From: a virus
Lineage: Duplodnaviria; Heunggongvirae; Uroviricota; Caudoviricetes
Strand: one strand, 5' to 3'
DNA length: 64,000 nucleotides
Virus record (IMG/VR): IMGVR_UViG_3300032225_001769
Coordinates: 76,612 to 140,611 of that record
Shown: positions 1-62,134 of the stretch, piece by piece
How positions within the stretch are numbered: position 1 is the first letter of the stretch
How the letters are laid out: each line of letters opens with the position of its first letter
The notes under the pieces: generated by a model
Seen by the model: the letters and a program-made list of their open reading frames with translations, nothing else
Databases searched by the model: none
Told to the model about the DNA's origin: nothing
Program-made: the position numbers and the translations under genes

Positions 1-3000
1 ACCTGTACCACTTTCATATAAGTAAGTATCAACTATACCTCCTTTAACGACAGGAGTTGCCGTAATGCTAGTATAATCACTAGAACTTTCTCTAGAATAT
101 GTTATTGAAACTGAAATATTGGGGTAACTGAAATATTGATATCCAGATCCTTTTGATGCAAACTTAATATAATTTTTTCTATTATAATTTGATAAATCTG
201 TACCTCCAATTCCAGCACTAATTAATCTAAATGAATTATCATCTATTTTTGAAACATAATATTGATACGCAGAAGAAAGTCCTACAATACTTGAGGTCTC
301 ATAATTATACTCAATAAGATCTGCCTCATTAAATCTATGATTATCAAAATTAATACTATGATTTGTAGTAGATACTCCTACTGGTTTTACAATCAACTTT
401 TTATTTTGATATCCTTCACCACCGTCAATTACTTTAATTTCCGATATTGTTTTTTTATCAGATAATGTTGTAAATTTGTGAATACCAGAATTATTTACAT
501 TAGTAAATCCTATGGTATTAATTCCTAAGGAATAATCTGAAAATGACGGATATAATTTTATAGTACTATTATTTTCCTTTTTTACATAATATTGTGAATT
601 ATTAGACAAAGTTCTTGACTGATCATTATTTGATCCAGCAAAAGTTCCAATACCAATTTCACCATTTCCGTTAGAATTATAGGTTACTTCATCTCCAGTA
701 TTTAAGTTATGATTTGTCAAAAATGTTAAAGTGTCATTTGTATAATCTATTCCACCAGAATTTGTAGATAGTCTTCCATCAAAATAAATTTCACGATATC
801 TTGTATTCAAAATCGGTTCTAAAACTGCTCCTTTACCATTGCCACCAGTTACTGTAATTGATACAATAGTATTGATATCAAAATCCTGAGAATCTACAAA
901 TACACTTTTAATACTACCACTCATAACTGGTTGAACTAAAGCAGTTACTCCCAATCCAGTAGAAATTTCAATTAGTGGTGGGTTTATAACATCATAATTA
1001 CTTCCACCATTTAAAACATTGACAGACTTTAGTGGGCCATAATAAATGTGATCATTTGATTTATAATTCTGAATCTCAACTCCATTTATCAACATTCCAA
1101 TTGAACCTGGATGAGTTAATTCACCAGTTCCATTTTGAATATTTTGATTTAGTGGAAATTTTTTGAGTACTTTTTGTCCACCAATAGTTTCTGATTTTTG
1201 TGAGTATAATAAAAATTTATGAGTATTTTGTGAATCAAAAGTCGAATCTAGATAAGTTAAATAATTTCCAGTGCCAATAAATGATCTTGAATCATATAGT
1301 TTGATTTTTTTATTATCTAACTGAACTTCAACATAATAAGTTCCAGTTTCCAATCCGGAAATAACTGATGAACTTGGTTTATAGTAAACCTTATCTCCAG
1401 TAATGAATGGTACTGCATCATTGAAATTGATTGTACTATAATAATTTTCATCAATTTTATCAGTTAATCCAATACTTGTTGAAGATTTTAAATCGGCAGT
1501 TATCTGATAATTATAAGATTTTGGTAAATTTGCACTATTATTTCTTATGTCATTTGATGGTAAAGAATTTGAAGCAATATATGCATACTCATTATTCTCA
1601 TCGTATAAATTTAATACATCAGATAAAATGACATCGTTTCCATATTGAATTGGAACTGTGTAACTACTTGCCTTATTAACCTTTCTTCTTAAGTTATATT
1701 CGACCCCATCTTCATACCACCCATCCAATGAAAAATCATTTAGTTCAATTGTTTTTAGATCATTATCAATAGATTTTACATATGGTATATTTGAACTTGT
1801 AATTGGAAATCTTACTATATTACTATATTTCTCTACAATTTCAACTATATCACCAACTTTCAAACTTGATTTATTAGCAATACTTTTAAGTGTTGGTTTA
1901 GATCCGACAAAAGTTTCTATTTCATAACTACAACTCGTGTTATAGATCCATGAATTTGCAAAAATTTCTTTATATGAACTATTATTATCTTCAATTAACT
2001 CACCTAAACCTTTTATTGAAACTTCATCCCCAACCGAAACTTTAAAATAATCTGATACTGGTACAAATTCGGACAGTACTCCAGTAATTCTAAAGTATGC
2101 CTTTTTAGTAGTATCACCATTTTCATATCCATAATAAATTTCATCAGATCTTACATTGTCTGTAGAATTAATTTCTTCAGTTACACCTGTGCAACCAAAA
2201 AATTGATTAATTGATTTATTTGCATAATTTATAGTATTATTTCCGGATATAATGGTTCCAGACTCTTTAAATCCGATTGTAGAATCAACTGAAATAACCG
2301 AAGATCCTACAGAGACATCTTCTAAACATTTTGTATTTTGCGTAATAGTAAAGTTTCCTTCAATTGCAGATCTTTCATCATATCCAACAAAGAGTGAAAT
2401 CTTATAATACCTTACATTGTCTTTAGTGAATATTTCTACCTCAGATACTGATGCATTAGTAGTTTCATCAGTAGATTTGAAAATAGTTTGTCCAATTAAT
2501 TTGGAAGGATCTCCAGAAATTCTTTCTGCGGATACAACGTTTCTTCTTGTATATTGTGCTGAAGAAGGTTTAATTAAAAAATCTTCTAGATTTACTACTT
2601 TAGGAGTTACTCCATAAAGAACATTAAATAAAATTCTAAATGATTCATCAGTACCTTTAGATTGATAAAAAGATCTTGCATTTTTGATAAAGTTTCCTAC
2701 GTTTAAATCAGAAACAAAATCTACATCTTCTAATCCTGGTGTTAGAGAAAATTTTAATTTTTTATAAAACTCTTTTAAAAATAATGAACTTAAATTTTGT
2801 ACAGGGGATTCTGAATTATGTGTCGAAGATATAGAAGTCGAAAATACTAATTCGTCCTGATTAGAAACTGAATGATATGATGAAATACCACTAAATCCAC
2901 GAATACATCCGGTAAATGTATTTGTAGTTAATCCAGTATATGTGATAATTTCATCATCAATCTTAATCAAACCATATTTTTGAGGAAATCCCTTTGTACT

Positions 3001-10923: not shown

Positions 10924-11361
10924 ATGAAAGAATTAAAGAATCATCCTGGATATTTTATATCAGAAGATGGAAACTTCTACAACTCAAAAGGTAGACAATT
11001 AAAACAATTTCACAGATGCAAAGGATACTTAGGTGTAAGATTATATAAAACTGCATACTATGTGCATAGGTTAATTGCTGAGGAATTTATACCAAACCCC
11101 AACAATCATTCCCAGGTCAATCATATTGACAAAGATAGAAGTAACAATTGCATTGACAATTTAGAATGGTGCAATCCTCAACAAAATGTAGAGCATTCAT
11201 TGGCAAAAGTTTTTATCATTGAAAGTAAAAATGGTGAAAAATTTGAAGTCTTCAATTTAACAAAATGGTGTAGAGAAAATAACTTAAATATGAAAAACTT
11301 GCATGGTACAAAATCACCAAAATGCCGACAGCATTGGTCGCAAGGTTATCGTATTGTATAG
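10924..11361 (+). CDS. HNH homing endonuclease (HNH_3 type)
   Basis: 145 aa; ..GYLGVRL..YYVHRLIAEEFIPNPNNHSQVNHIDKDRSNNCIDNLEWCN.. ; only plus-strand gene in the region, typical free-standing insertion. Confidence 0.8.
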   Translation: MKELKNHPGYFISEDGNFYNSKGRQLKQFHRCKGYLGVRLYKTAYYVHRLIAEEFIPNPNNHSQVNHIDKDRSNNCIDNLEWCNPQQNVEHSLAKVFIIESKNGEKFEVFNLTKWCRENNLNMKNLHGTKSPKCRQHWSQGYRIV

Positions 11362-22391: not shown

Positions 22392-23123
22392 TTAGTGCTT
22401 CAGAGTGGGCATGAGACGCAAACCATCACGAAAGATGGCATTTTTCATGTTGCAACGAACAGTGCTCAGAGTTTCCATAGTGGCAACAGTGTTCACAAGA
22501 AACATTTTTTCAAGTTCTTCACGAATACGCTCAACTGAAACCTTGCTCAGCATTTCAGCAGCAAAGTCACTGTTGACCGCATCCCAGGTATCTGCATCAA
22601 TGTCGAATCCTTTGGTAATATGAAACCTCAGTGCTCGCATGACTCTCAACCCATCTTCTGCGATTCGGTCAGTAGGATTGCCCACAAACTTCAGCAGATT
22701 ATCTTGTAGATCTTGGCGACCACCAAAAGGATCAATCAATTCATTATCCAACCTTGCCATTGCATTGACGGTGAAATCCCGGCGCTCCAGATCGTCCATG
22801 AGAGTACCGGCCAGTACAAAATCAGGCCGCCTGCCGTCGCTGCTAGGACCGTCCTTGCGGGCAAGTACGAAGTCAGCAACGTTTGTGCGATGCTTCAGAG
22901 GATGCCCATCAGGAACCTGTGCCCGAACAGTGAAGAATTCAGGAGTTTCCAAAAATACTTTGAAACCACACCATTTTAGATGTGCTACAAGATTTTTAAA
23001 GGCATCATTGGCATCTCGATGAAACTCTAGAGAACGTGGAATTGCAACGAAATCAACATCCTTGGATTTTACACCGAGAAAAGAATCTCGAACTGCTCCA
23101 CCCACTTCTGCGAATTGAAACAC
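22392..23123 (-). CDS. cca: tRNA nucleotidyltransferase (CCA-adding enzyme), minimal head-domain form
   Basis: 243 aa; class-II polbeta-NTase motifs GGAVRDSFLG..DVD, ERRDFTVNAMA, DPFGG..DL....L..VG.P..R..EDGLRVMRALRF; GTG start with GGAGA SD. Confidence 0.8.
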   Translation of the reverse strand: MFQFAEVGGAVRDSFLGVKSKDVDFVAIPRSLEFHRDANDAFKNLVAHLKWCGFKVFLETPEFFTVRAQVPDGHPLKHRTNVADFVLARKDGPSSDGRRPDFVLAGTLMDDLERRDFTVNAMARLDNELIDPFGGRQDLQDNLLKFVGNPTDRIAEDGLRVMRALRFHITKGFDIDADTWDAVNSDFAAEMLSKVSVERIREELEKMFLVNTVATMETLSTVRCNMKNAIFRDGLRLMPTLKH

Positions 23124-23207
23124 TTTCAGTCTCCGTTGTGTACGAATGTATTATAAGGAATCACAGGGACTTTATGAGTGTCCCTGTGCCAGTTGTTAAA
23201 GTGTCCT
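23124..23207 (-). promoter_or_regulatory. cassette element subfamily III: box GGACACTTTAACAACTGGCACAG + hairpin GGGAC-N9-GTCCC + CCTTATAAT -10; near-identical copy at 23700-23774
   Basis: read directly. Confidence 0.6.
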
Positions 23208-23693
23208 CAAGTATTGATAAAGATGATGTGCATAAATGGATTTGTTGATATAAAGAATTTCACCAGTTTCTTTATTAAGTTTTACTCCATAATCAAGAGA
23301 AGGATTTTCAATACTATTCATAATGACAATATCATCTTTTGTGAATATTGGATTGATATTAAATTTATCCATTTCAACAAGTTTATGAAACTCCTGAAGT
23401 TCCTCTTCGGTCAAATCACTTACATAGTTACTATAGTCAACCGGAATTTGAATTCTATCATTTTCAAACTTTTCATATTGATATTTTTTTTCTTTGCCGT
23501 ATTTGAACGACATATTATCAGTATCAATGTTATCTCTCAGGTCATCTTCAAATGCTTCAATTACATACCTTTTATAACCTTTTTGAGATGGAATATTCTC
23601 AGTATCCACACACCATTCAAGATAATCTTCAACAGAAAACTTAGAGGTATGAGTAAAGGTAATTGTGATTGATTGAAGAGTGATAGTATCCAT
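23196..23693 (-). CDS. hypothetical protein (165 aa)
   Basis: ORF track. Confidence 0.5.
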   Translation of the reverse strand: MDTITLQSITITFTHTSKFSVEDYLEWCVDTENIPSQKGYKRYVIEAFEDDLRDNIDTDNMSFKYGKEKKYQYEKFENDRIQIPVDYSNYVSDLTEEELQEFHKLVEMDKFNINPIFTKDDIVIMNSIENPSLDYGVKLNKETGEILYINKSIYAHHLYQYLRTL

Positions 23694-23773
23694 CAGGTTT
23701 CTTTGTCTAAGAATGTATCATAAGGAATCACAGGGACTTTATGAGTGTCCCCGTGCCAGTTGTTAAAGTGTCC

Positions 23774-24316
23774 TCAACTCTTATGATTTTTATCAAATGG
23801 TGCCTTGAAATAATGATTTGCAGCAGAATGGAAAATCATTACACCTTCAGGATTATAAAAATTAGGAGAGACGACAGATCCATAAAACCAAAGATGTTCC
23901 ATTACATCATCAAGTGCATTTGTACTAAACTCTCCAGTATAAAGAGTCGGAACAACATGGCAACAAGCAGGAAGATTTTCTTCATTCCAGATACTTACAT
24001 TAAACAGTGAGAATCGTTTCTCGCCCTTTGGAAGATTATAACCTCGTTGAATACCAGAACCCCACCATTCTCCGTGATGATGACCAGCACCAAGTTTCAT
24101 CAATTCGCTCTTATTTTCAGATGCCCAGCGATGAAATCCAAAATTGTCAGATTCTGCACTCAACCAACGATTACGACTTCCAATAAACATATCTCCATCA
24201 TCAGTGATGTAGATAAGACCATTAGTTCCGTCAATCTTTTCAGTGACCACGCATTCTTTATGAAGACGGGGAATTTTGGGAAAGGGAATAAATTCGGGAT
24301 AGTCAGTTTGATTCAT
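23774..24316 (-). CDS. putative RNA ligase, Rnl2-like nucleotidyltransferase domain (PF09414-like)
   Basis: 180 aa; ligase motif I TEKIDGTNG (KxDG); acidic motif-III/IV-like stretches. Confidence 0.55.
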   Translation of the reverse strand: MNQTDYPEFIPFPKIPRLHKECVVTEKIDGTNGLIYITDDGDMFIGSRNRWLSAESDNFGFHRWASENKSELMKLGAGHHHGEWWGSGIQRGYNLPKGEKRFSLFNVSIWNEENLPACCHVVPTLYTGEFSTNALDDVMEHLWFYGSVVSPNFYNPEGVMIFHSAANHYFKAPFDKNHKS

Positions 24317-24376
24317 TAGTTTTGTCTCCTTAATGTGTAAAATAATAACAACCTTTCTGTATGAATACTGGCATGA

Positions 24377-24733
24377 TCAAGAAGCAATTTTTACATATTC
24401 AGAACTAAAACCACCAATCCATTCTTGATTTTGATACAAGAACGCAATTGCATCATCAGTACAAGAAGTTACATCACCAGGAAATGCAATGTATTGAGTC
24501 TGCTCATCGGTAAAGTCTGGAAATCCAATATCTTTCATTTCCAGTTCTGATAGGCAAAACTCTTCATCATCATATGCTTTTTCATTCATAGCATCAAACT
24601 CACTCTTACTCATCACCAGTTCTTCATAGACAACACGGCGACGAACAAGTGTAACTTTTTCAGAGTCATTCATTTCTTGAATATCCCAACCCATATTTGC
24701 TGCAATGGCGGGATGAACTAAAGTAGGATTCAT
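24377..24733 (-). CDS. acidic hypothetical protein (118 aa from MNPTLVHPAI...)
   Basis: track trimmed at leader (..NKSTKRKRSL). Confidence 0.45.
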   Translation of the reverse strand: MNPTLVHPAIAANMGWDIQEMNDSEKVTLVRRRVVYEELVMSKSEFDAMNEKAYDDEEFCLSELEMKDIGFPDFTDEQTQYIAFPGDVTSCTDDAIAFLYQNQEWIGGFSSEYVKIAS

Positions 24734-24893
24734 GAGAGATCGTTTGCGTTTGGTTGACTTGTTCATTATAAGGCACAAGAAGGTGAATCAGTGACTACCT
24801 TGTGCCAGTTGATCAAGTGGTCTCAATCTTCGTAATCATCCTCATTATCTCTACAATATACATTTGCCTTTGTCTTTCTAGGATCTAATGGTT

Positions 24894-25619
24894 TCAATCT
24901 TCCCATTCATTACCATAATCAGGACCAATTCCAGTTTTAGTATCACCGGACATGGGTTTTAATCTTTTCTTACCTTTTGCCTTTTGCTTAGGTGATGGTT
25001 CTCTACCTACACTTGCATATTGATCTCCTGATTGACCTACTGGACCAAAACCTGCTCTTTGATACAATTTTGACCTTGTATTCTTTTCTGGATTTTCATC
25101 TGTTGGATTAGAAAGTGGATAATTAGTTAGCACTGACCCATGAGGAAGACGATGTTGAACATGTGTATCCCAGACATTCTTTGCATCTCTTGCAATTTGT
25201 TTTTTATTAGCATCATCAGATTTATCACGACCAGCACTATACCACATTATATCATGAACTGGTTTACCATCTTTCGTTTTGTTTCCGGTATTTTTCACAA
25301 GATAATTGATTCCCTTAGAACGCACTCTCAATAATTTATCTCTATCAGTAAAAACCTCTGCATCTGGATGAGAACTTGAATTAAAGTTAGGATTATCTGC
25401 ACCGTGTCTAACCTTATCATTTGATCTTGTAATTTGCTTTAGACTTCTTCCCAAATGTCTCATTCTTTCTTCGTGTTCTGAAGAATCTTTATATTTTCTC
25501 TTATTTCTAAAATATGAAGATCTAGACTTTCCATATGGCGTTTTTCCAGATGGCAACTTCTCATCTGGGGCATAATACCTTTCTTGAAGATCGCATATGA
25601 ATTGAGAATATGTCTTCAT
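24894..25619 (-). CDS. highly basic, low-complexity hypothetical protein (241 aa from MKTYSQFICDLQERYY...)
   Basis: track 24894..25682 trimmed to first plausible ATG. Confidence 0.45.
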   Translation of the reverse strand: MKTYSQFICDLQERYYAPDEKLPSGKTPYGKSRSSYFRNKRKYKDSSEHEERMRHLGRSLKQITRSNDKVRHGADNPNFNSSSHPDAEVFTDRDKLLRVRSKGINYLVKNTGNKTKDGKPVHDIMWYSAGRDKSDDANKKQIARDAKNVWDTHVQHRLPHGSVLTNYPLSNPTDENPEKNTRSKLYQRAGFGPVGQSGDQYASVGREPSPKQKAKGKKRLKPMSGDTKTGIGPDYGNEWED

Positions 25620-25635
25620 CTTTGTCCTTTTTATT

Positions 25636-26043
25636 TTATTTATCAATAAGTTCGTCAAGTAAGGACTCAAACTCAGGATCAATCAGAGGTTCTTCATATT
25701 TTTCACAATAAACATAGATAATCTCCGGAACACTGCCAAAATATCCTTGTAACCATGGACACAACCACAGTTTCATTGAACTCAGTTTATCTGTATAATA
25801 TGAACCAGATTTATCAGTCTCAATCAATTTGATTTCGGTAATTGCACGATCAAATGAATCAGTATCGAGATAGAAATTGATCTTATCACCCGATACTGGT
25901 TTAATGTTATTCAATACTTCAAAATACCAATCAATCACAGTTTCAGTACCATTATATAATGCTTCTGCGACTGTATTCTGGTGTTCATGATCGAATGCCC
26001 AAATGCCATATTCAGTTTTATATGCAGTGATTTTAAGTTTCAT
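25636..26043 (-). CDS. hypothetical protein (135 aa)
   Basis: ORF track. Confidence 0.5.
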   Translation of the reverse strand: MKLKITAYKTEYGIWAFDHEHQNTVAEALYNGTETVIDWYFEVLNNIKPVSGDKINFYLDTDSFDRAITEIKLIETDKSGSYYTDKLSSMKLWLCPWLQGYFGSVPEIIYVYCEKYEEPLIDPEFESLLDELIDK

Positions 26044-26134
26044 AAGATTATAAAGTTTATCTTTGTATTATACAAGAAGTAACGACCACATGAAGGGGTC
26101 TTGTGCCAGTTCGTCAAGTGTCCTTTAGGATGTT

Positions 26135-26599
26135 TTAAAAATTCCCTTTACCCTGACCCACATCGAAGACCCAGATGCCTCGATTGATCCACATATCAAC
26201 CACTCGCTTTCGATCATCGAAAACCATTAGAATGTTATGAGTCTTTTCAATTTCATCTGCAATCTCACCTTTGACGATTGAATCATCACGTTTGTCATGC
26301 TCCTTTCTCATAAGAAGAGAATGATATTCAAAACAGTGCTTTGCCAACCATTCTTCAGTTTTTTCACGATAATCATTAGACCTACCAGACACAAAAATAA
26401 GGTCAGTTTCCTTATCAATGTAGTAAGTTAGTGCTCGGAATACAAATTCCACAGCAGCATTCGGCGTATCATTCATCATGCCCTCATTCCATGCCCTCCA
26501 GTTTTTCGGTTTGTTGGCAACAAAGTGACGACGATGAAGAACATCACACAGAGTTCCATCCAAATCGAAACAAATCGCATTTCTTTTAATCATAATCAA
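26135..26599 (-). CDS. pseT: polynucleotide 3'-phosphatase (HAD family), Pnk C-terminal domain as separate ORF
   Basis: 154 aa; HAD motif I FDLDGTL at N-terminus; ATGA overlap with kinase ORF. Confidence 0.7.
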   Translation of the reverse strand: MIMIKRNAICFDLDGTLCDVLHRRHFVANKPKNWRAWNEGMMNDTPNAAVEFVFRALTYYIDKETDLIFVSGRSNDYREKTEEWLAKHCFEYHSLLMRKEHDKRDDSIVKGEIADEIEKTHNILMVFDDRKRVVDMWINRGIWVFDVGQGKGNF

Positions 26600-27108
26600 T
26601 TACCTCGCTCAATGGTTTCAAAGTTTTCGGTGTTGTTGGGAATCTGAAATGAATAGTACATGGACTTCAAAACACTTTCAGGAATGATCTTTCCTTCACG
26701 ATGCCTATTCCGTTCTAGTGCTTCTTCCAGAGTGATTTCAAAATAAACTGCTTTCTTGTGATAATGTTTTGGAACACGGGAAGTCTTAGTCTTGCGGGTC
26801 TTGGGTGTGAGATTCGTTTGATCCCAGATAATATCACGACCCTCATGAACTGCAAACTTCAATTGTTTCCACATAAACTCGGTTGCTGCGGAAATATGAT
26901 CTTGGAAGACCTCATTATATGTTTTACCCTGCTCTTCCGCAACTTTTTGAATGTAATTGTCCGTAGAAAGAACAACTGCATTTTGCCAGTATGGTTGAGA
27001 AAGTAGAGTTTTGACATAAGTGGACTTTCCGGAAGTAGGAATGCCACAAAGAAGAATCAGTTCCATGTGATTGGTGTGTATGTGAATACTATAGGGCATC
27101 AGAATCAA
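26596..27108 (-). CDS. pseT: polynucleotide 5'-kinase (P-loop), Pnk N-terminal domain as separate ORF
   Basis: 170 aa; Walker A LLCGIPTSGKST; T4 Pnk kinase-domain-like. Confidence 0.7.
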   Translation of the reverse strand: MILMPYSIHIHTNHMELILLCGIPTSGKSTYVKTLLSQPYWQNAVVLSTDNYIQKVAEEQGKTYNEVFQDHISAATEFMWKQLKFAVHEGRDIIWDQTNLTPKTRKTKTSRVPKHYHKKAVYFEITLEEALERNRHREGKIIPESVLKSMYYSFQIPNNTENFETIERGN

Positions 27109-27135
27109 AAGTCATCATGCCCTTGTGCCAGTTGA

Positions 27136-28329
27136 TCAGGTGGCATTCCAGTTCAGATTACCAAACATCCATTTGACACTATTAACTTTTGTTTGCGTAC
27201 TCACAGACTTACGAATCTGATCCACCAGAAGATGCTTTACGGGAACTTTACGACGCAAACCGAACATAAAGTTTTGCAGATGTTTTGGAGTTTCCTTCAT
27301 AACAAGAATAGCAAACTCCTTCTGATCCTGACCTTGATCCAAAGAAACATACTGATCGTGAATGGTCGTTCCAACGTCCTCCACTGCCATCCAGAATGCC
27401 TTTTGAAACGCTCGGAGACGATCTGCGTCTTCTGGGGTCAGCAACGGCACAACGTCGTCCACAGCATCTTCTACAATCGTCTCAATGACGTTCTTTTCCT
27501 GACTGATGGCATCCTTTGACCTATGACGAAGAACATAATCATCTGCCTTGATTTTCAACATATACCCACTATCAAAGCGAATCACTACACCTTCAGAATC
27601 TTCCCACTTGCGAATGTGCTCTACAATATCAGTAATGTTTGCAGTTCCATCACTAGCAATTGCTTTCACAAAAGGAATATTATAAGATTCTGCATACATC
27701 TTCATAGACTTATAAGCAACATACTGTCCAGAATTATTGTAACGAATTGCAGTCAGAATCAGATTGTCTTCGGGATAGTCCACAACAATACGATTGATAC
27801 GAGAGCACCATTCAAAAATAGGAGTGGTTCCTTTTTGAATCCATTTCTTGATGAAAGTGGAATATTGTGGTTTGTCGGCAATAAAGGTTTCGGCATTCAT
27901 TGCCACATCAGTCACTCCTGCTTTGGTAGCAAGACGAAATCCACCATCAGGAAGAGGAATCGGACGAATCATAGATCCATCCAGTTTCTCTAGAATCACA
28001 TGAGGTTCATCAAGATTCACCTTATTCAGATGAGTCTCATGTTTCTCACCAATGTTAAAGAACTTATGATAAGGACGAGAGATCAGATTGCCTTGCAGAT
28101 CGAAGATCAGACCACGGCATTCACGGCGAACAGCACTCTCAAGAGCACGGGCAGCTCGCATCTTGGCAGAACCACCAGCAACACTCACGGAAGGGAATGT
28201 ATCTTCAAGATTTACCATGTAATTGACTACGGAATACCATTCCTTGTCAAAGACACGAAACTCCTCACGACCTTCAATGTGAGGAAGAACATCATCAATT
28301 TTAGAGATAGCAGGAAAAGTGTATTTCAT
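27136..28329 (-). CDS. rnlA: RNA ligase 1 (T4 RnlA-like)
   Basis: 397 aa; motif I ILEKLDGSM (KxDGS); size and architecture like T4 Rnl1 (374 aa). Confidence 0.7.
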   Translation of the reverse strand: MKYTFPAISKIDDVLPHIEGREEFRVFDKEWYSVVNYMVNLEDTFPSVSVAGGSAKMRAARALESAVRRECRGLIFDLQGNLISRPYHKFFNIGEKHETHLNKVNLDEPHVILEKLDGSMIRPIPLPDGGFRLATKAGVTDVAMNAETFIADKPQYSTFIKKWIQKGTTPIFEWCSRINRIVVDYPEDNLILTAIRYNNSGQYVAYKSMKMYAESYNIPFVKAIASDGTANITDIVEHIRKWEDSEGVVIRFDSGYMLKIKADDYVLRHRSKDAISQEKNVIETIVEDAVDDVVPLLTPEDADRLRAFQKAFWMAVEDVGTTIHDQYVSLDQGQDQKEFAILVMKETPKHLQNFMFGLRRKVPVKHLLVDQIRKSVSTQTKVNSVKWMFGNLNWNAT

Positions 28330-60597: not shown

Positions 60598-60897
60598 TTA
60601 CACTAAATCCTCAACATCAAATTCTAATATATCTTCTGGCAAATCTTCTGGATTCTCCAAATCCATTGGGAAAAGTAGGGGGTGTGCTTTTTCCTCCATC
60701 AAATAAAATGAATTCTTATATAAGTCGTCTGGTTCAAATCTTCTTTGCTTGTCTGCTAATTCTTTTAGATCCTTATCGTACAAATGACCGTCTGGTAGTT
60801 CGTCGAAGGTGAATGGGATTTCTGATATAAAATACATTTTAACTATTTGAGAACCTTCATTATACCAGCAGTATGCTTGACTGATTTTATAAGACAT
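60598..60897 (-). CDS. acidic hypothetical protein (99 aa)
   Basis: ORF track. Confidence 0.45.
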   Translation of the reverse strand: MSYKISQAYCWYNEGSQIVKMYFISEIPFTFDELPDGHLYDKDLKELADKQRRFEPDDLYKNSFYLMEEKAHPLLFPMDLENPEDLPEDILEFDVEDLV

Positions 60898-60920: not shown

Positions 60921-61394
60921 TTATTTTTTGTTTTTGCCCCTATAAGTATCAGTCTGTGCGTGGCAGTTGGGGCACAGGATACGAAGGTTTTCTAAACTAT
61001 TATCGTGATGGTTGCCGTTTATGTGGTCAAGTTCAATCGGTGCTGGTTTTCCGTTCCATTCTATTATACCACAACATTCACACTTATGTTGTTTGAAACC
61101 TTCTGCAATTAATCTTTTCCTTAAACTATTTGATGTGACTATAAATTCACAATTTAATTTTAGATATTCTTGAATGTCTCTTTTTGGTCCAAATGCTTTT
61201 CCTTTATTCCACACTTTAGGATCAATAAAATGATCTATTGATATATTAAGTTCCTTTATTCTATCGTGAAAACATTTATAATTTCCGCCTGCTGCCTTTA
61301 AATTTAATTTTAATAGAACTTCTCTGATTGATTGGGACGTTTTAATTGCTTCAACAAATTCTTCATTTGTTGATTTATATCCGTTTTTTAACAT
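60921..61394 (-). CDS. HNH homing endonuclease
   Basis: 157 aa; ..CECCGIIEWNGKPAPIELDHINGNHHDNSLENLRILCPNCHAQTD HNH/zinc motif; adjacent to tRNA genes. Confidence 0.8.
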   Translation of the reverse strand: MLKNGYKSTNEEFVEAIKTSQSIREVLLKLNLKAAGGNYKCFHDRIKELNISIDHFIDPKVWNKGKAFGPKRDIQEYLKLNCEFIVTSNSLRKRLIAEGFKQHKCECCGIIEWNGKPAPIELDHINGNHHDNSLENLRILCPNCHAQTDTYRGKNKK

Positions 61395-61416
61395 TTAAGT
61401 AAACATAACTATTATT

Positions 61417-61424
61417 ATTTATAA
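61417..61424 (-). promoter_or_regulatory. T4-type late promoter motif TATAAATA 33 nt upstream of HNH ATG
   Basis: exact octamer on minus strand. Confidence 0.4.
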
Positions 61425-61439
61425 TATGTTTACTTTTTA

Positions 61440-61514
61440 TAGCGGTGATGGGATTCGAACCCATACTGTCGAAATTTTAAGTTTCGTGCCTGCTGCCAGT
61501 TGGGCTACACCGCC
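61440..61514 (-). tRNA. tRNA, anticodon UAA (Leu by anticodon) but type-I short variable arm; no encoded CCA
   Basis: manual cloverleaf: acceptor GGCGGTG/CACCGCT, anticodon stem CGAAA/TTTCG loop CTTAAAA, variable ACAGT, T-arm ATGGG-TTCGAAT-CCCAT, D-loop with GG. Confidence 0.7.
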
Positions 61515-61553
61515 GATAAGACTATCATAACTGAAAGAATCATAATAGTCAAG

Positions 61554-61625
61554 TGCTCCTTGTCGGTTCTGCCCCGACCTTCTATCTGTTATGAGCAGAT
61601 TGCATTCCTAGATTGCTAAAGGAGC
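61554..61625 (-). tRNA. tRNA-like element, anticodon CAU (Met/Ile2-type), atypical T-loop GGCAGAA; no encoded CCA
   Basis: manual fold: acceptor GCTCCTT/AAGGAGC (7 bp), D-arm GCA-ATCTAGGAA-TGC with G18G19, anticodon stem ATCTG/CAGAT loop CTCATAA, T-stem GTCGG/CCGAC; track ORF 61582..61764 overlaps it. Confidence 0.45.
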
Positions 61626-61757
61626 AAATACTCGCCCAGGGTAACGATCCCTGCCAAAGGCCCTGATCTGGGGCAAAGGATTTATAAGATCCCCCTGAAC
61701 ACCTGTTCTGACGAGCATAAATCTCTAAATCCATTCTAACAGATTTGGAGTGATTTG

Positions 61758-61940
61758 TCAACAACCTTCTTCGTGATCTGTGTGTATTCGGATCAGGTCG
61801 TCAACTTCTTCATATTTAGCATAGGGAATCATTACGGCATTACCATATTCACTGCTAATAATGAATGACTCCCCATTTTCGACTCGATCTAAAAGATCAT
61901 CGAAGTTCTCCTGAAATTCTTCTATAGTGTACTTTTGCAT
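61758..61940 (-). CDS. acidic hypothetical protein (60 aa)
   Basis: ORF track. Confidence 0.4.
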   Translation of the reverse strand: MQKYTIEEFQENFDDLLDRVENGESFIISSEYGNAVMIPYAKYEEVDDLIRIHTDHEEGC

Positions 61941-61942
61941 CT

Positions 61943-62134
61943 TTAGAGTGGATTGGAATATGCAACACGATCTTCGCTTATTTGAGTACGAACTACTTCT
62001 AGAACATTCATAAATTGATCAATAGTATCACATTCTACAAATTTTTCATTACCCTGATTGGAGTATAGATAAAATTTCCGCGCTTGAGGATCCACAACAC
62101 ACTTCGTGAGGAACTCTTCAACATTAGGGGTCAT
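61943..62134 (-). CDS. hypothetical protein (63 aa)
   Basis: ORF track; cassette-type early promoter (CCCTATGAT) upstream 62135-62210. Confidence 0.4.
   Translation of the reverse strand: MTPNVEEFLTKCVVDPQARKFYLYSNQGNEKFVECDTIDQFMNVLEVVRTQISEDRVAYSNPL

Follow-up and report, generated by a model that had tools for sequence, protein, structure and literature searches.

The DNA analysed here, referred to below as the window, is a stretch of 64,000 nt (64 kb) of the IMG/VR virus record IMGVR_UViG_3300032225_001769 and belongs to a T4-like cyanomyovirus; genes for the gp6 baseplate protein and the tail fibres are present. Its nearest record is the freshwater Synechococcus phage S-SRM01, which is approximately 72% identical in nucleotides where the two align (37% of a 2-kb query). 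The minus strand of the window carries three transfer RNA (tRNA) genes, designated E3, E2 and tRNA-Leu(UAA), followed by a gene for an HNH endonuclease. We consider this locus to be, probably, a cluster of functional but remodelled phage tRNAs, expressed early and located beside a mobile HNH gene. The initial annotation had described two tRNAs at this site; both are real tRNA genes with non-canonical features, and a third one, E3, located 3 nt upstream of E2, had been missed. The features of the locus, listed in the direction of transcription, are the following.

61733..61761, minus strand: P1, putative sigma-70-type promoter (consensus scan, 11 of 12 matches)
61629..61716, minus strand: E3, tRNA of 88 nt with anticodon UAU (fold and covariation)
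61554..61625, minus strand: E2, tRNA of 72 nt with anticodon CAU (cloverleaf scan and covariation)
61524..61552, minus strand: P2, putative sigma-70-type promoter (consensus scan, 10 of 12 matches)
61440..61514, minus strand: tRNA-Leu(UAA), 75 nt (ARAGORN and Rfam)
61397..61435, minus strand: hairpin of 39 nt between tRNA-Leu and the HNH start codon (RNAfold)
61416..61423, minus strand: TATAAATA, T4-type late promoter consensus (motif match only)
60921..61394, minus strand: predicted free-standing HNH endonuclease gene, 157 amino acids (open reading frame, homology and motif)

The cluster is thus organized as P1, E3, a 3-nt spacer, E2, P2, tRNA-Leu(UAA), the hairpin with TATAAATA and the HNH open reading frame (ORF). 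P1 (TTGACA-17-TAGAAT, with a TG upstream of the -10 hexamer) is located approximately 10 nt upstream of E3, and its -35 hexamer overlaps the stop codon of an upstream Phd/YefM-like ORF. P2 (TTGACT-17-TATGAT) lies directly upstream of tRNA-Leu, and its CTTGAC motif is retained after E2 in related contigs. All three tRNA genes lack an encoded CCA end, the 3' flanks being UAA, CUU and UUU, which confirms what had been read earlier for two of them. Phage S-SRM01 possesses the same three tRNA genes in the same order, all with canonical T-loops, including the E3 and E2 orthologues; they are called by ARAGORN as tRNA-Ile(tat, 90 nt), tRNA-Met(cat) and tRNA-Leu(taa), with Rfam scores of 28.8, 46.3 and 56 bits, respectively. 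None of these three genes, which both programs call, is annotated in the RefSeq record of S-SRM01 (NC_070963; locus L001, 1716..2449). In many cyanomyovirus-like contigs, E3 and E2 again stand in tandem, 3-4 nt apart, and CTTGAC and an arm-less tRNA-Leu(UAA) come after them.

The gene at 61514..61440 on the minus strand is called tRNA-Leu(taa) by ARAGORN and scores 58 bits against Rfam RF00005, for a gathering score of 29. It is composed of GGCGGUG / UA / GCC-CAACUGGCAGCA-GGC / A / CGAAA-CUUAAAA-UUUCG / ACAGU / AUGGG-UUCGAAU-CCCAU / CACCGCU / A. Direct reading, ARAGORN and Rfam agree that a UAA anticodon is combined with a variable loop of 5 nt (ACAGU), as the initial annotation had observed; this is short of the 11 nt or more, with a stem, that characterize a type II tRNA. 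The molecule displays a discriminator A73, a 3-bp D-stem, a canonical T-loop and a D-loop reading C-A14-A15-C-U-G18-G19-C-A20a-G-C-A, with a U48 able to pair with A15. The full set of identity elements of an E. coli-type leucyl-tRNA synthetase (LeuRS), i.e. A73, A14, A15:U48, G18G19 and A20a, can therefore be read from the sequence, this set being that of E. coli and possibly not that of the host. The E. coli enzyme relies on A73, A15:U48, G18G19, A20a and D/T-loop contacts and not on the anticodon or the long arm, and minimal E. coli tRNA-Leu variants without the arm stay leucylated (PMC9976931).

In a census of 61 phage loci with 486 ARAGORN tRNAs, 52 distinct tRNA-Leu were found, of which 27 have a variable region of 5 nt, 5 one of 6 nt and 18 one of 11-18 nt, so that the short form (32 of 52) is the commonest in the arrays examined. 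Discriminator A73 is present in 51 of the 52, A15:U48 in 25 of the 32 short ones, and all five leucine anticodons are represented among the short forms. In the same arrays the long arm is kept by the serine tRNAs (21 of 21 ARAGORN calls) and by the tyrosine tRNAs (8 of 9), so arm loss is largely confined to the one isotype with a synthetase that can do without the arm; this retention fits the requirement of the seryl- and tyrosyl-tRNA synthetases, as opposed to LeuRS, for the arm. Related annotated tRNA-Leu genes of 74-75 nt occur in Synechococcus (S-SKS1), Streptomyces (Comrade) and Myxococcus (Mx1) phages, and a six-sequence alignment of the window gene with annotated phage tRNA-Leu has a mean column identity of 83%. 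From its sequence, we interpret tRNA-Leu(UAA) as a genuine leucine tRNA that lost its long variable arm. The most likely route for its charging would be by the host LeuRS via A73 and the Leu-type D-loop and elbow elements, none of which involves the arm.

With the type II tRNA-Leu(UAA) of bacteria and T4 it shares the anticodon, A73, the 3-bp D-stem, the long D-loop with A14 A15..G18 G19 N A20a, U48 and the canonical T-loop, and both read UUA/UUG as leucine; in contrast, the entire long arm is absent from the window tRNA. A 2023 review stated that the long arm is kept by tRNA-Leu in all organisms except animal mitochondria (PMC9976931), a statement to which phage tRNA arrays are a large exception. 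The minimalist E. coli tRNA-Leu and human mitochondrial tRNA-Leu(UUR) are also arm-less and leucylated via A73 and D/T-loop contacts (PMC9976931); these are laboratory constructs or organellar, whereas the phage design is natural and widespread, extending over cyanobacterial, actinobacterial and myxobacterial phages. A full-text search of the literature found no description of an arm-less phage tRNA-Leu, such absence being no proof of novelty.

The second gene, E2, comprises a 7-bp acceptor stem (GCUCCUU/AAGGAGC), a D-arm with GG, the anticodon arm AUCUG-CUCAUAA-CAGAU, the T-arm GUCGG-GGCAGAA-CCGAC and a discriminator A. Its T-loop reads G54 G55 C56 A57 G58. The initial annotation had given this fold with its odd T-loop at 61625..61555 and had proposed tRNA predictors as a check on both of its tRNAs; the structure is as described, and ARAGORN and Rfam called tRNA-Leu and rejected E2, while the loop turned out to be a recurrent phage T-loop type rather than a single-gene oddity. 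When both strands of the window were scanned for strict cloverleafs with the T-loop sequence ignored, exactly two hits were obtained, E2 and tRNA-Leu, with none in 5 shuffles used as a control. RNAfold predicts a clean cloverleaf for E2 (z = -3.05). Among 8 homologues, 92% of the cells are paired, with compensatory changes in 10 of 21 pairs and an invariant T-stem; the unpaired cells are mostly due to a one-column misalignment of the row of Escherichia phage JNE01 and to position 13:22. The covariation of E2, like that of E3, exceeds that of all 500 shuffles and all slid controls. An exact scan of IMG/VR located the 18-nt T-arm GGTCGGGGCAGMACCGAC at 22 viral loci, and GGCAGAA with the invariant T-stem is kept in all cyanophage copies of E2.

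Initiator tRNA-fMet is characterized by a 1:72 mismatch and by an anticodon stem whose lower end consists of three successive G-C pairs. E2 has a G1-C72 pair and the anticodon stem AUCUG/CAGAU, and is therefore an elongator tRNA(CAU), either for methionine or for lysidine-dependent Ile2. The pairs C4-G69 and C5-G68 are determinants for E. coli TilS. Both are found in the E2 of the window (GCUCCUU/AAGGAGC) and in the copy of phage JNE01 (GGCCCUG/CAGGGCC), and the relatives have G5-C68; these determinants are those of E. coli and may not be those of the host.

The copy of Escherichia phage JNE01, an E. coli jumbo phage (OR670491; locus L002, 1490..1562), is an unannotated tRNA(CAU) with the T-loop GGCAGCA and 88% identity over 58 nt to the cyanophage E2. 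Its T-arm is retained and its acceptor stem has diverged. A NUMOD4-HNH gene lies immediately upstream of it, and none of the related Asteriusvirus records searched contains this tRNA. To judge from these sequences, the JNE01 copy points to horizontal movement of E2-type tRNAs between phages of very different hosts.

E3 carries the anticodon loop CUUAUAA (anticodon UAU, reading AUA), a discriminator A and a 7/5 layout of acceptor and T-stem. Its compact D-arm GAAC-AGGU-GUUC consists of 4 bp and a 4-nt loop, and the anticodon arm is followed by an extra hairpin (GCCC-CAGAUCA-GGGC), a 6-nt linker (CUUUGG) and the T-arm CAGGG-AUCGUUA-CCCUG. In 9 distinct homologues, 100% of the pair cells are paired, with double changes in 17 of 26 pairs, 54/58 included, and the 17-nt T-arm CAGGGATCGTTACCCTG occurs at 36 viral loci in the exact IMG/VR scan. 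The E3 orthologues of S-SRM01 and cyanophage S-CRM01, which have canonical T-loops, are called tRNA-Ile(tat) by ARAGORN and score 28.8 and 38.3 bits in Rfam. Since orthologues with canonical T-loops pass or come near the Rfam threshold (46.3, 38.3 and 28.8 bits), the failure of the predictors on E2 and E3 is largely due to the T-loops. An alternative fold of E3 with an 8/5 (tRNA-Sec-like) or 8/4 (allo-tRNA) layout was rejected, as the -1:73 pair is not conserved and all 7/5 pairs are supported, 17 of 26 by double changes.

A family scan blind to the sequence of the arm (CTTATAAN{19,40}GGTTCGA) was performed, and the figures that follow apply to the 120 loci listed. Of long-arm tRNA(UAU) genes compatible with a cloverleaf, at least 22 distinct ones were found, which differ strongly in their acceptor and D-arms; 22 of 22 have the 7/5 layout and A73, and 17 of 22 an encoded CCA. 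The trinucleotide GAU is present in the second-hairpin region of 21 of the 22 and is placed by RNAfold in the hairpin loop of 19 of 22 (CAGAUUA, UAGAUUU, CUGAUUA, CAGAUAA and others), as compared with 8 of 60 other long-arm phage tRNAs used as a control. The family is defined by the 7/5 layout, A73, a CUUAUAA loop, a second hairpin of 4-6 bp with a GAU loop, and a linker of 5-7 nt, and E3 displays all of these; it is widespread in phages. At locus L005, a long-arm tRNA(UAU) has the anticodon loop CCUAUAA, with C33 instead of U33. The consensus of the second loop, YWGAUWW, resembles the anticodon loop of tRNA-Ile(GAU), CUGAUAA, and the 5-7-nt linker that follows has the length of an ordinary variable loop; based on this likeness and this length, the long-arm tRNA(UAU) looks like a tRNA with two tandem anticodon arms. 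The extra loop of E3 (AGAUU) could in principle kiss the D-loop of E2 (AAUCU), a candidate that was discarded: there is no covariation, phages that lack E2 keep the GAU loop as well, and the match is taken as a coincidence.

Two other loci (L017 and L023) have an ordinary short tRNA-Ile(UAU) in the same slot, 2-4 nt upstream of E2. This, together with the behaviour of AUA as an isoleucine codon (see below) and the presence in the anticodon loop of A35, U36, A37 and A38, which are read by isoleucyl-tRNA synthetase (IleRS), makes isoleucine the most likely identity, and E3 is most probably an AUA-reading tRNA(UAU) predicted to be charged with isoleucine. We hypothesize that the GAU loop may help IleRS. 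Two known types of tRNA resemble E3. The nematode nev-tRNA-Ile(UAU) shares the long arm and the UAU anticodon (PMC3333845); however, nev-tRNAs are tRNA-Leu-like and leucylated (PMC3333845), while E3 is devoid of a Leu-type D-loop, has the GAU hairpin and linker, and belongs to a phage using AUA as isoleucine. The allo-tRNAs of Mukai et al. (PMC5389517) share the long arm, a D-arm tetraloop and possibly a longer anticodon stem, and UAU is among their predominant anticodons; in contrast to their 8/4 or 9/3 layout and G73/U73 (serine identity; PMC5389517), E3 and 22 of 22 listed relatives have 7/5 and A73. In the full-text search of the literature no description of a long-arm phage tRNA(UAU) was found, which is no proof of novelty.

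The T-loops of the E3 family are UUCGAAU, UUCGAUA, AUCGUAA and AUCGUUA, in which positions 54/58 are U/A or A/U and never mixed. The near-identical E3-family genes of loci L011 and L032 have T-arms that differ only by this two-base swap. Among 431 distinct ARAGORN tRNAs with a well-formed T-arm, a sample enriched by the choice of loci, 54/58 is U/A in 384, A/U in 37, A/A in 5, C/A in 3, G/G in 1 and U/G in 1, and the A54/U58 loop occurs with many T-stems and many anticodons. Other T-loops of ARAGORN-called phage tRNAs (loci L005, L007, L019, L021, L030 and L058) are UGCGAUU/UGCAAAU (G55), AGCGUUA, AGCAAAG (A54/A58), GGCGGAA and CUCGAAU. From what is generally known of RNA structure, a trans Watson-Crick/Hoogsteen pair would in principle be possible for all 54/58 combinations seen. 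The 17-mer of the E3 T-arm has 46 hits in 596 Gb of cellular genomes, about the number expected by chance, of which 3 fall in ARAGORN-called tRNAs, two in dense arrays and the third a lone tRNA-SeC call; the dense arrays (14-22 tRNAs per 8 kb) account for these two called tRNAs and one further hit. The A54/U58 and G54-G55...G58 T-loops are thus recurrent phage variants, and neither A54/U58 nor GGCAGAA T-loops were found described in the full-text search, an absence that does not prove novelty. The idea that the odd T-loops confer immunity against the neighbouring HNH endonuclease at the level of the DNA was discarded, as the type of T-loop shows no consistent association with the adjacency of an HNH gene in the window, S-SRM01, S-CRM01, JNE01 and the contigs.

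The meaning of the codons UUA and AUA, each used approximately 18 times per 1000 in this AT-rich phage, was scrutinized in an alignment of 41 ORFs of the window with the orthologues in S-SRM01 (5519 columns, one related phage). Where the orthologue uses a different codon, UUA (n = 91) is aligned with leucine codons in 49% of the cases, and AUA (n = 87) with isoleucine in 37%, valine in 19%, threonine in 12% and leucine in 7%, a profile that is the same as that of AUC. Both codons behave like control codons and keep their standard meaning, without reassignment; the reading of AUA as leucine was ruled out by the same alignment (7% versus 37% for isoleucine).

The HNH gene downstream of tRNA-Leu encodes a protein of 157 amino acids with the motif ELDHINGNHHDNSLENLRILCPNCH, in which DHINGNHHDN..N..CPNCH is visible, and is 44% identical (E = 2e-32) to g201 of S-CRM01, an annotated HNH endonuclease that passes PF01844 and likewise follows an arm-less tRNA-Leu. 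The initial annotation had placed an HNH gene behind a late-promoter motif, as in the tRNA region of T4, and this arrangement was recovered, with TATAAATA at 61423..61416 and the ORF at 61394..60921. The hairpin at 61435..61397 (-11.1 kcal/mol by RNAfold, z = -2.88; 1 of 200 shuffles as good) contains TATAAATA in its 5' arm and loop, and its 3' arm ends 2 nt before the HNH AUG. Late transcripts from TATAAATA would start inside the hairpin, leaving the HNH start site free; as the start would be buried only in transcripts that contain the whole hairpin, translation of the endonuclease is probably delayed to late infection, by analogy with the endonuclease genes of T4.

Homologues of this HNH family, and of the unrelated HNH family of S-SRM01, are located between tRNA genes, at varied positions, in many viral contigs, and the presence of an HNH gene is variable among otherwise syntenic relatives. 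In the window it follows tRNA-Leu, in S-SRM01 an unrelated HNH gene lies between E3 and E2, and in S-CRM01 a homologue is found inside a split E3-type gene. These data fit a free-standing homing endonuclease, predicted from sequence, of a family that moves within phage tRNA clusters. Like T4 segB and other tRNA-cluster endonucleases (PMC2330249, PMC13096335), it is embedded in a tRNA cluster, variable in presence and place, and preceded by a T4-type late promoter motif; T4 segB is of the GIY-YIG type, whereas the window gene is an HNH gene known here from its sequence.

The stop codon of the S-SRM01 HNH gene gp048 falls inside the 5' end of its tRNA(CAU). In S-CRM01 (NC_015569; locus L003, 900..1557) the E3-type gene is split into a 5' part of 23 nt (900..922) and a 3' half (approximately 1509..1557) with an ATCGTTA T-loop; the intervening approximately 590 nt hold the HNH gene and an intact unannotated 90-nt tRNA(UAU) at 1404..1493, and the 5' fragment is followed by an inverted repeat of 13 bp (AGGTGTTCAGAAA / TTTCTGAACACCT). 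A group I intron was considered for this split, and as no intron was found in Rfam at E<=0.1, it is read as an insertion or partial replacement. Myxococcus phage Mx1 (OR576727; locus L111, 51..683) has a 74-nt arm-less tRNA-Leu(UAA) like that of the window, with an HNH gene 14 nt later; a conserved tRNA-Leu and HNH cassette was rejected, the Mx1 HNH protein being unrelated to that of the window (BLASTP E = 0.37). On the plus strand of the window, 11056..11247 gives a tblastn match (38% over 64 amino acids, E = 1e-7) to the NUMOD4-HNH endonuclease of JNE01, and may be a second homing-endonuclease gene or a remnant of one.

Other genes of the window relate to the maintenance of tRNAs. A tRNA/RNA-repair island spans 22392..28329 on the minus strand, and an antitoxin-like ORF adjoins P1.

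22392..23123, minus strand: CCA-adding-type nucleotidyltransferase, 243 amino acids (PF01743, 63.1 bits, and PF12627, 28.4 bits; GGAVRD motif)
23774..24316, minus strand: second RNA ligase (PF09414), repair island
26135..26599, minus strand: PNKP-type HAD phosphatase, repair island
26596..27108, minus strand: P-loop kinase, with a 4-nt overlap with the phosphatase ORF (split Pnkp)
27136..28329, minus strand: T4 Rnl1-type RNA ligase, repair island
61758..61940, minus strand: Phd/YefM antitoxin-like ORF, 60 amino acids (30.3 bits, cut-off 29.8)

The presence of a CCA-adding enzyme in the phage, as proposed in the initial annotation, is borne out as a prediction by the gene at 22392..23123. The 243-amino-acid protein is without the usual C-terminal body and tail, and, judged by its domains, could add CCA to the three CCA-less tRNAs. 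No toxin gene is located beside the Phd/YefM-like ORF, whose orthologue is gp047 of S-SRM01; a lone YefM antitoxin gene has been reported in cyanophage S-CREM1 (PMC9964418). The repair genes and this ORF fit a phage that invested in keeping its tRNAs functional under attack. Further upstream, a small conserved ORF (61943..62134, minus strand) matches DUF7294 with 73.7 bits, and downstream of the HNH gene a 99-amino-acid ORF (60598..60897, minus strand) with no Pfam match is syntenic with S-SRM01 gp049.

We thus favour the explanation of a cluster of functional, remodelled tRNAs, which is apparently transcribed early from P1 and P2, and whose precursor is presumably cut by RNase P and 3' nucleases before CCA is added by the phage or the host CCA-adding enzyme. 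The cluster would supply decoders for A/U-rich codons: AUA by E3, AUG or AUA by E2, and UUA by tRNA-Leu. Several points weigh against this explanation. No ARAGORN call was obtained for E2 and E3, and a search of 501 nt found no Rfam tRNA match for 61554..61716 even at E<=10. The HNH protein scores 21 bits against Pfam HNH_3, below the cut-off of 24.8. The codon test covers approximately 90 codons each and one related phage; it rules out reassignment, yet would leave room for mischarging at a low level. IleRS of the E. coli type prefers G34 or lysidine-34, and efficient charging of a UAU tRNA with isoleucine is not guaranteed. E2 may be either a Met or an Ile2 tRNA, C4-G69/C5-G68 being found in the copies of the window and of JNE01 and missing from those of the relatives, and a UAU tRNA plus a possible Ile2(CAU) would be redundant. 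Finally, the G54-G55/G58 loop of E2 removes the U54:A58 and G18:U55 contacts, which are rated important for tertiary structure and, in tRNA-Leu, for charging (PMC9976931).

The initial annotation had taken the UAA anticodon with a short variable loop as a sign of reassigned or otherwise unusual identity, and the tRNA does lack the long arm; a non-leucine identity with unusual decoding of UUA is nevertheless hardly credible, given that the LeuRS identity elements are all present in a tRNA whose bacterial synthetase does not need the arm, that the short design is common, occurs with all five leucine anticodons and has A73 in 51 of 52 cases, and that UUA stands at leucine positions. We also regard it as very unlikely that E2 and E3 are decaying pseudogenes or relics with damaged T-loops and that only tRNA-Leu is functional. 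Such decay would account for their being missed by both programs and for the canonical T-loops of the S-SRM01 orthologues, but their stems are all maintained via compensatory changes, the odd T-arms are exactly conserved at 22 (E2) and 36 (E3) viral loci, the 54/58 change between L011 and L032 is a clean two-base swap, the GGCAG[A/C]A T-arm was kept in the JNE01 copy despite a diverged acceptor stem, and a strong putative promoter (P1) is located directly upstream. That E3 is not an isoleucine tRNA, i.e. that it would be a leucine-charged AUA mistranslator of the nev-tRNA type or a non-translating decoy or regulatory RNA, seems unlikely as well. The long arm with A73, the C2-G71 pair (7 of the 9 members; listed in the review among the anti-SerRS elements of tRNA-Leu), the in vitro leucylation of nev-tRNA-Ile(UAU) (PMC3333845) and a compact D-arm with a swapped T-loop, unusual for a working tRNA, speak for such a role; against it stand the 4-nt D-loop without the A14/A15/A20a arrangement of a Leu-type loop, the position of AUA at isoleucine sites, the ordinary tRNA-Ile(UAU) at the same site in other phages and the A35, U36, A37 and A38 of CUUAUAA.

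A further explanation concerns why such designs exist and is compatible with the cluster of functional tRNAs favoured here: the loss of the arm and the changed T-loops may have been selected to evade host tRNA nucleases or a dependence on T-loop modification, so that translation would continue when host tRNAs are destroyed. We put this forward tentatively, as a possibility. Known defence systems include some that cleave the long variable arm, and phage tRNAs escape anticodon nucleases through loop changes (PMC10264068). The phage carries a tRNA-repair kit (Rnl1 ligase, kinase, phosphatase, second ligase and CCA-type enzyme), which makes defence evasion plausible, its Phd/YefM antitoxin-like gene adjoins the tRNA promoter, and cellular tRNA genes essentially lack the A54/U58 17-mer of the T-arm. 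However, no nuclease aimed at the T-loop or the tRNA-Leu arm was identified, the literature search found nothing on T-loop-directed anti-phage nucleases, and canonical and swapped T-loops alternate among close relatives, a pattern that near-neutral compensated drift would also explain. In a joint reading, which is rather doubtful at present, phage tRNAs would have been systematically re-engineered module by module, with three of these designs next to one another at this locus. The second arm of E3 and its family, whose position with respect to the variable loop and the T-arm is exactly that of a normal anticodon arm, would serve as an IleRS identity element: the first arm (UAU) would decode AUA, and the second (YWGAUWW) would let a U34-averse host IleRS charge the tRNA without lysidine. 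The arm-less tRNA-Leu and the odd T-loops would be escape forms, the former uncleavable by arm-directed host nucleases and the A54/U58 and G54-G55/G58 loops not recognized by T-loop-directed nucleases or by modification enzymes of the host. Phage tRNAs that escape host nucleases (PMC10264068; T5 tRNA-Tyr, PMC13096335) have in common with the window changes in defined modules and the presence of phage tRNA-repair genes; the known escape tRNAs are changed in the anticodon loop or in tRNA-Tyr's variable loop, whereas the changes in the window affect the T-loop and the tRNA-Leu arm, for which no matching nuclease is known.

These remodelled designs are widespread in phages, under-annotated and, as far as the literature searched shows, undescribed. 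Standard tRNA finders miss two of the three tRNAs at this locus, so that phage tRNA repertoires are undercounted wherever such T-loop variants occur, and the analyses of codon usage and defence evasion built on these repertoires share the undercount. The arm-less phage tRNA-Leu confirms, by an example from nature, that the arm is dispensable for bacterial LeuRS, and the swap from U54:A58 to A54:U58 between near-identical genes is natural covariation evidence for the reverse-Hoogsteen pair of the T-loop. This swap also indicates that loops other than the near-universal T-psi-C loop can be viable, a point of relevance to the engineering of tRNAs and to the design of orthogonal ones. The GAU second loop of the long-arm tRNA(UAU) offers a testable hypothesis of AUA decoding without lysidine, and the combination of a tRNA cluster, repair genes and a mobile HNH gene represents a compact test case for a tRNA-centred arms race between phages and their hosts.

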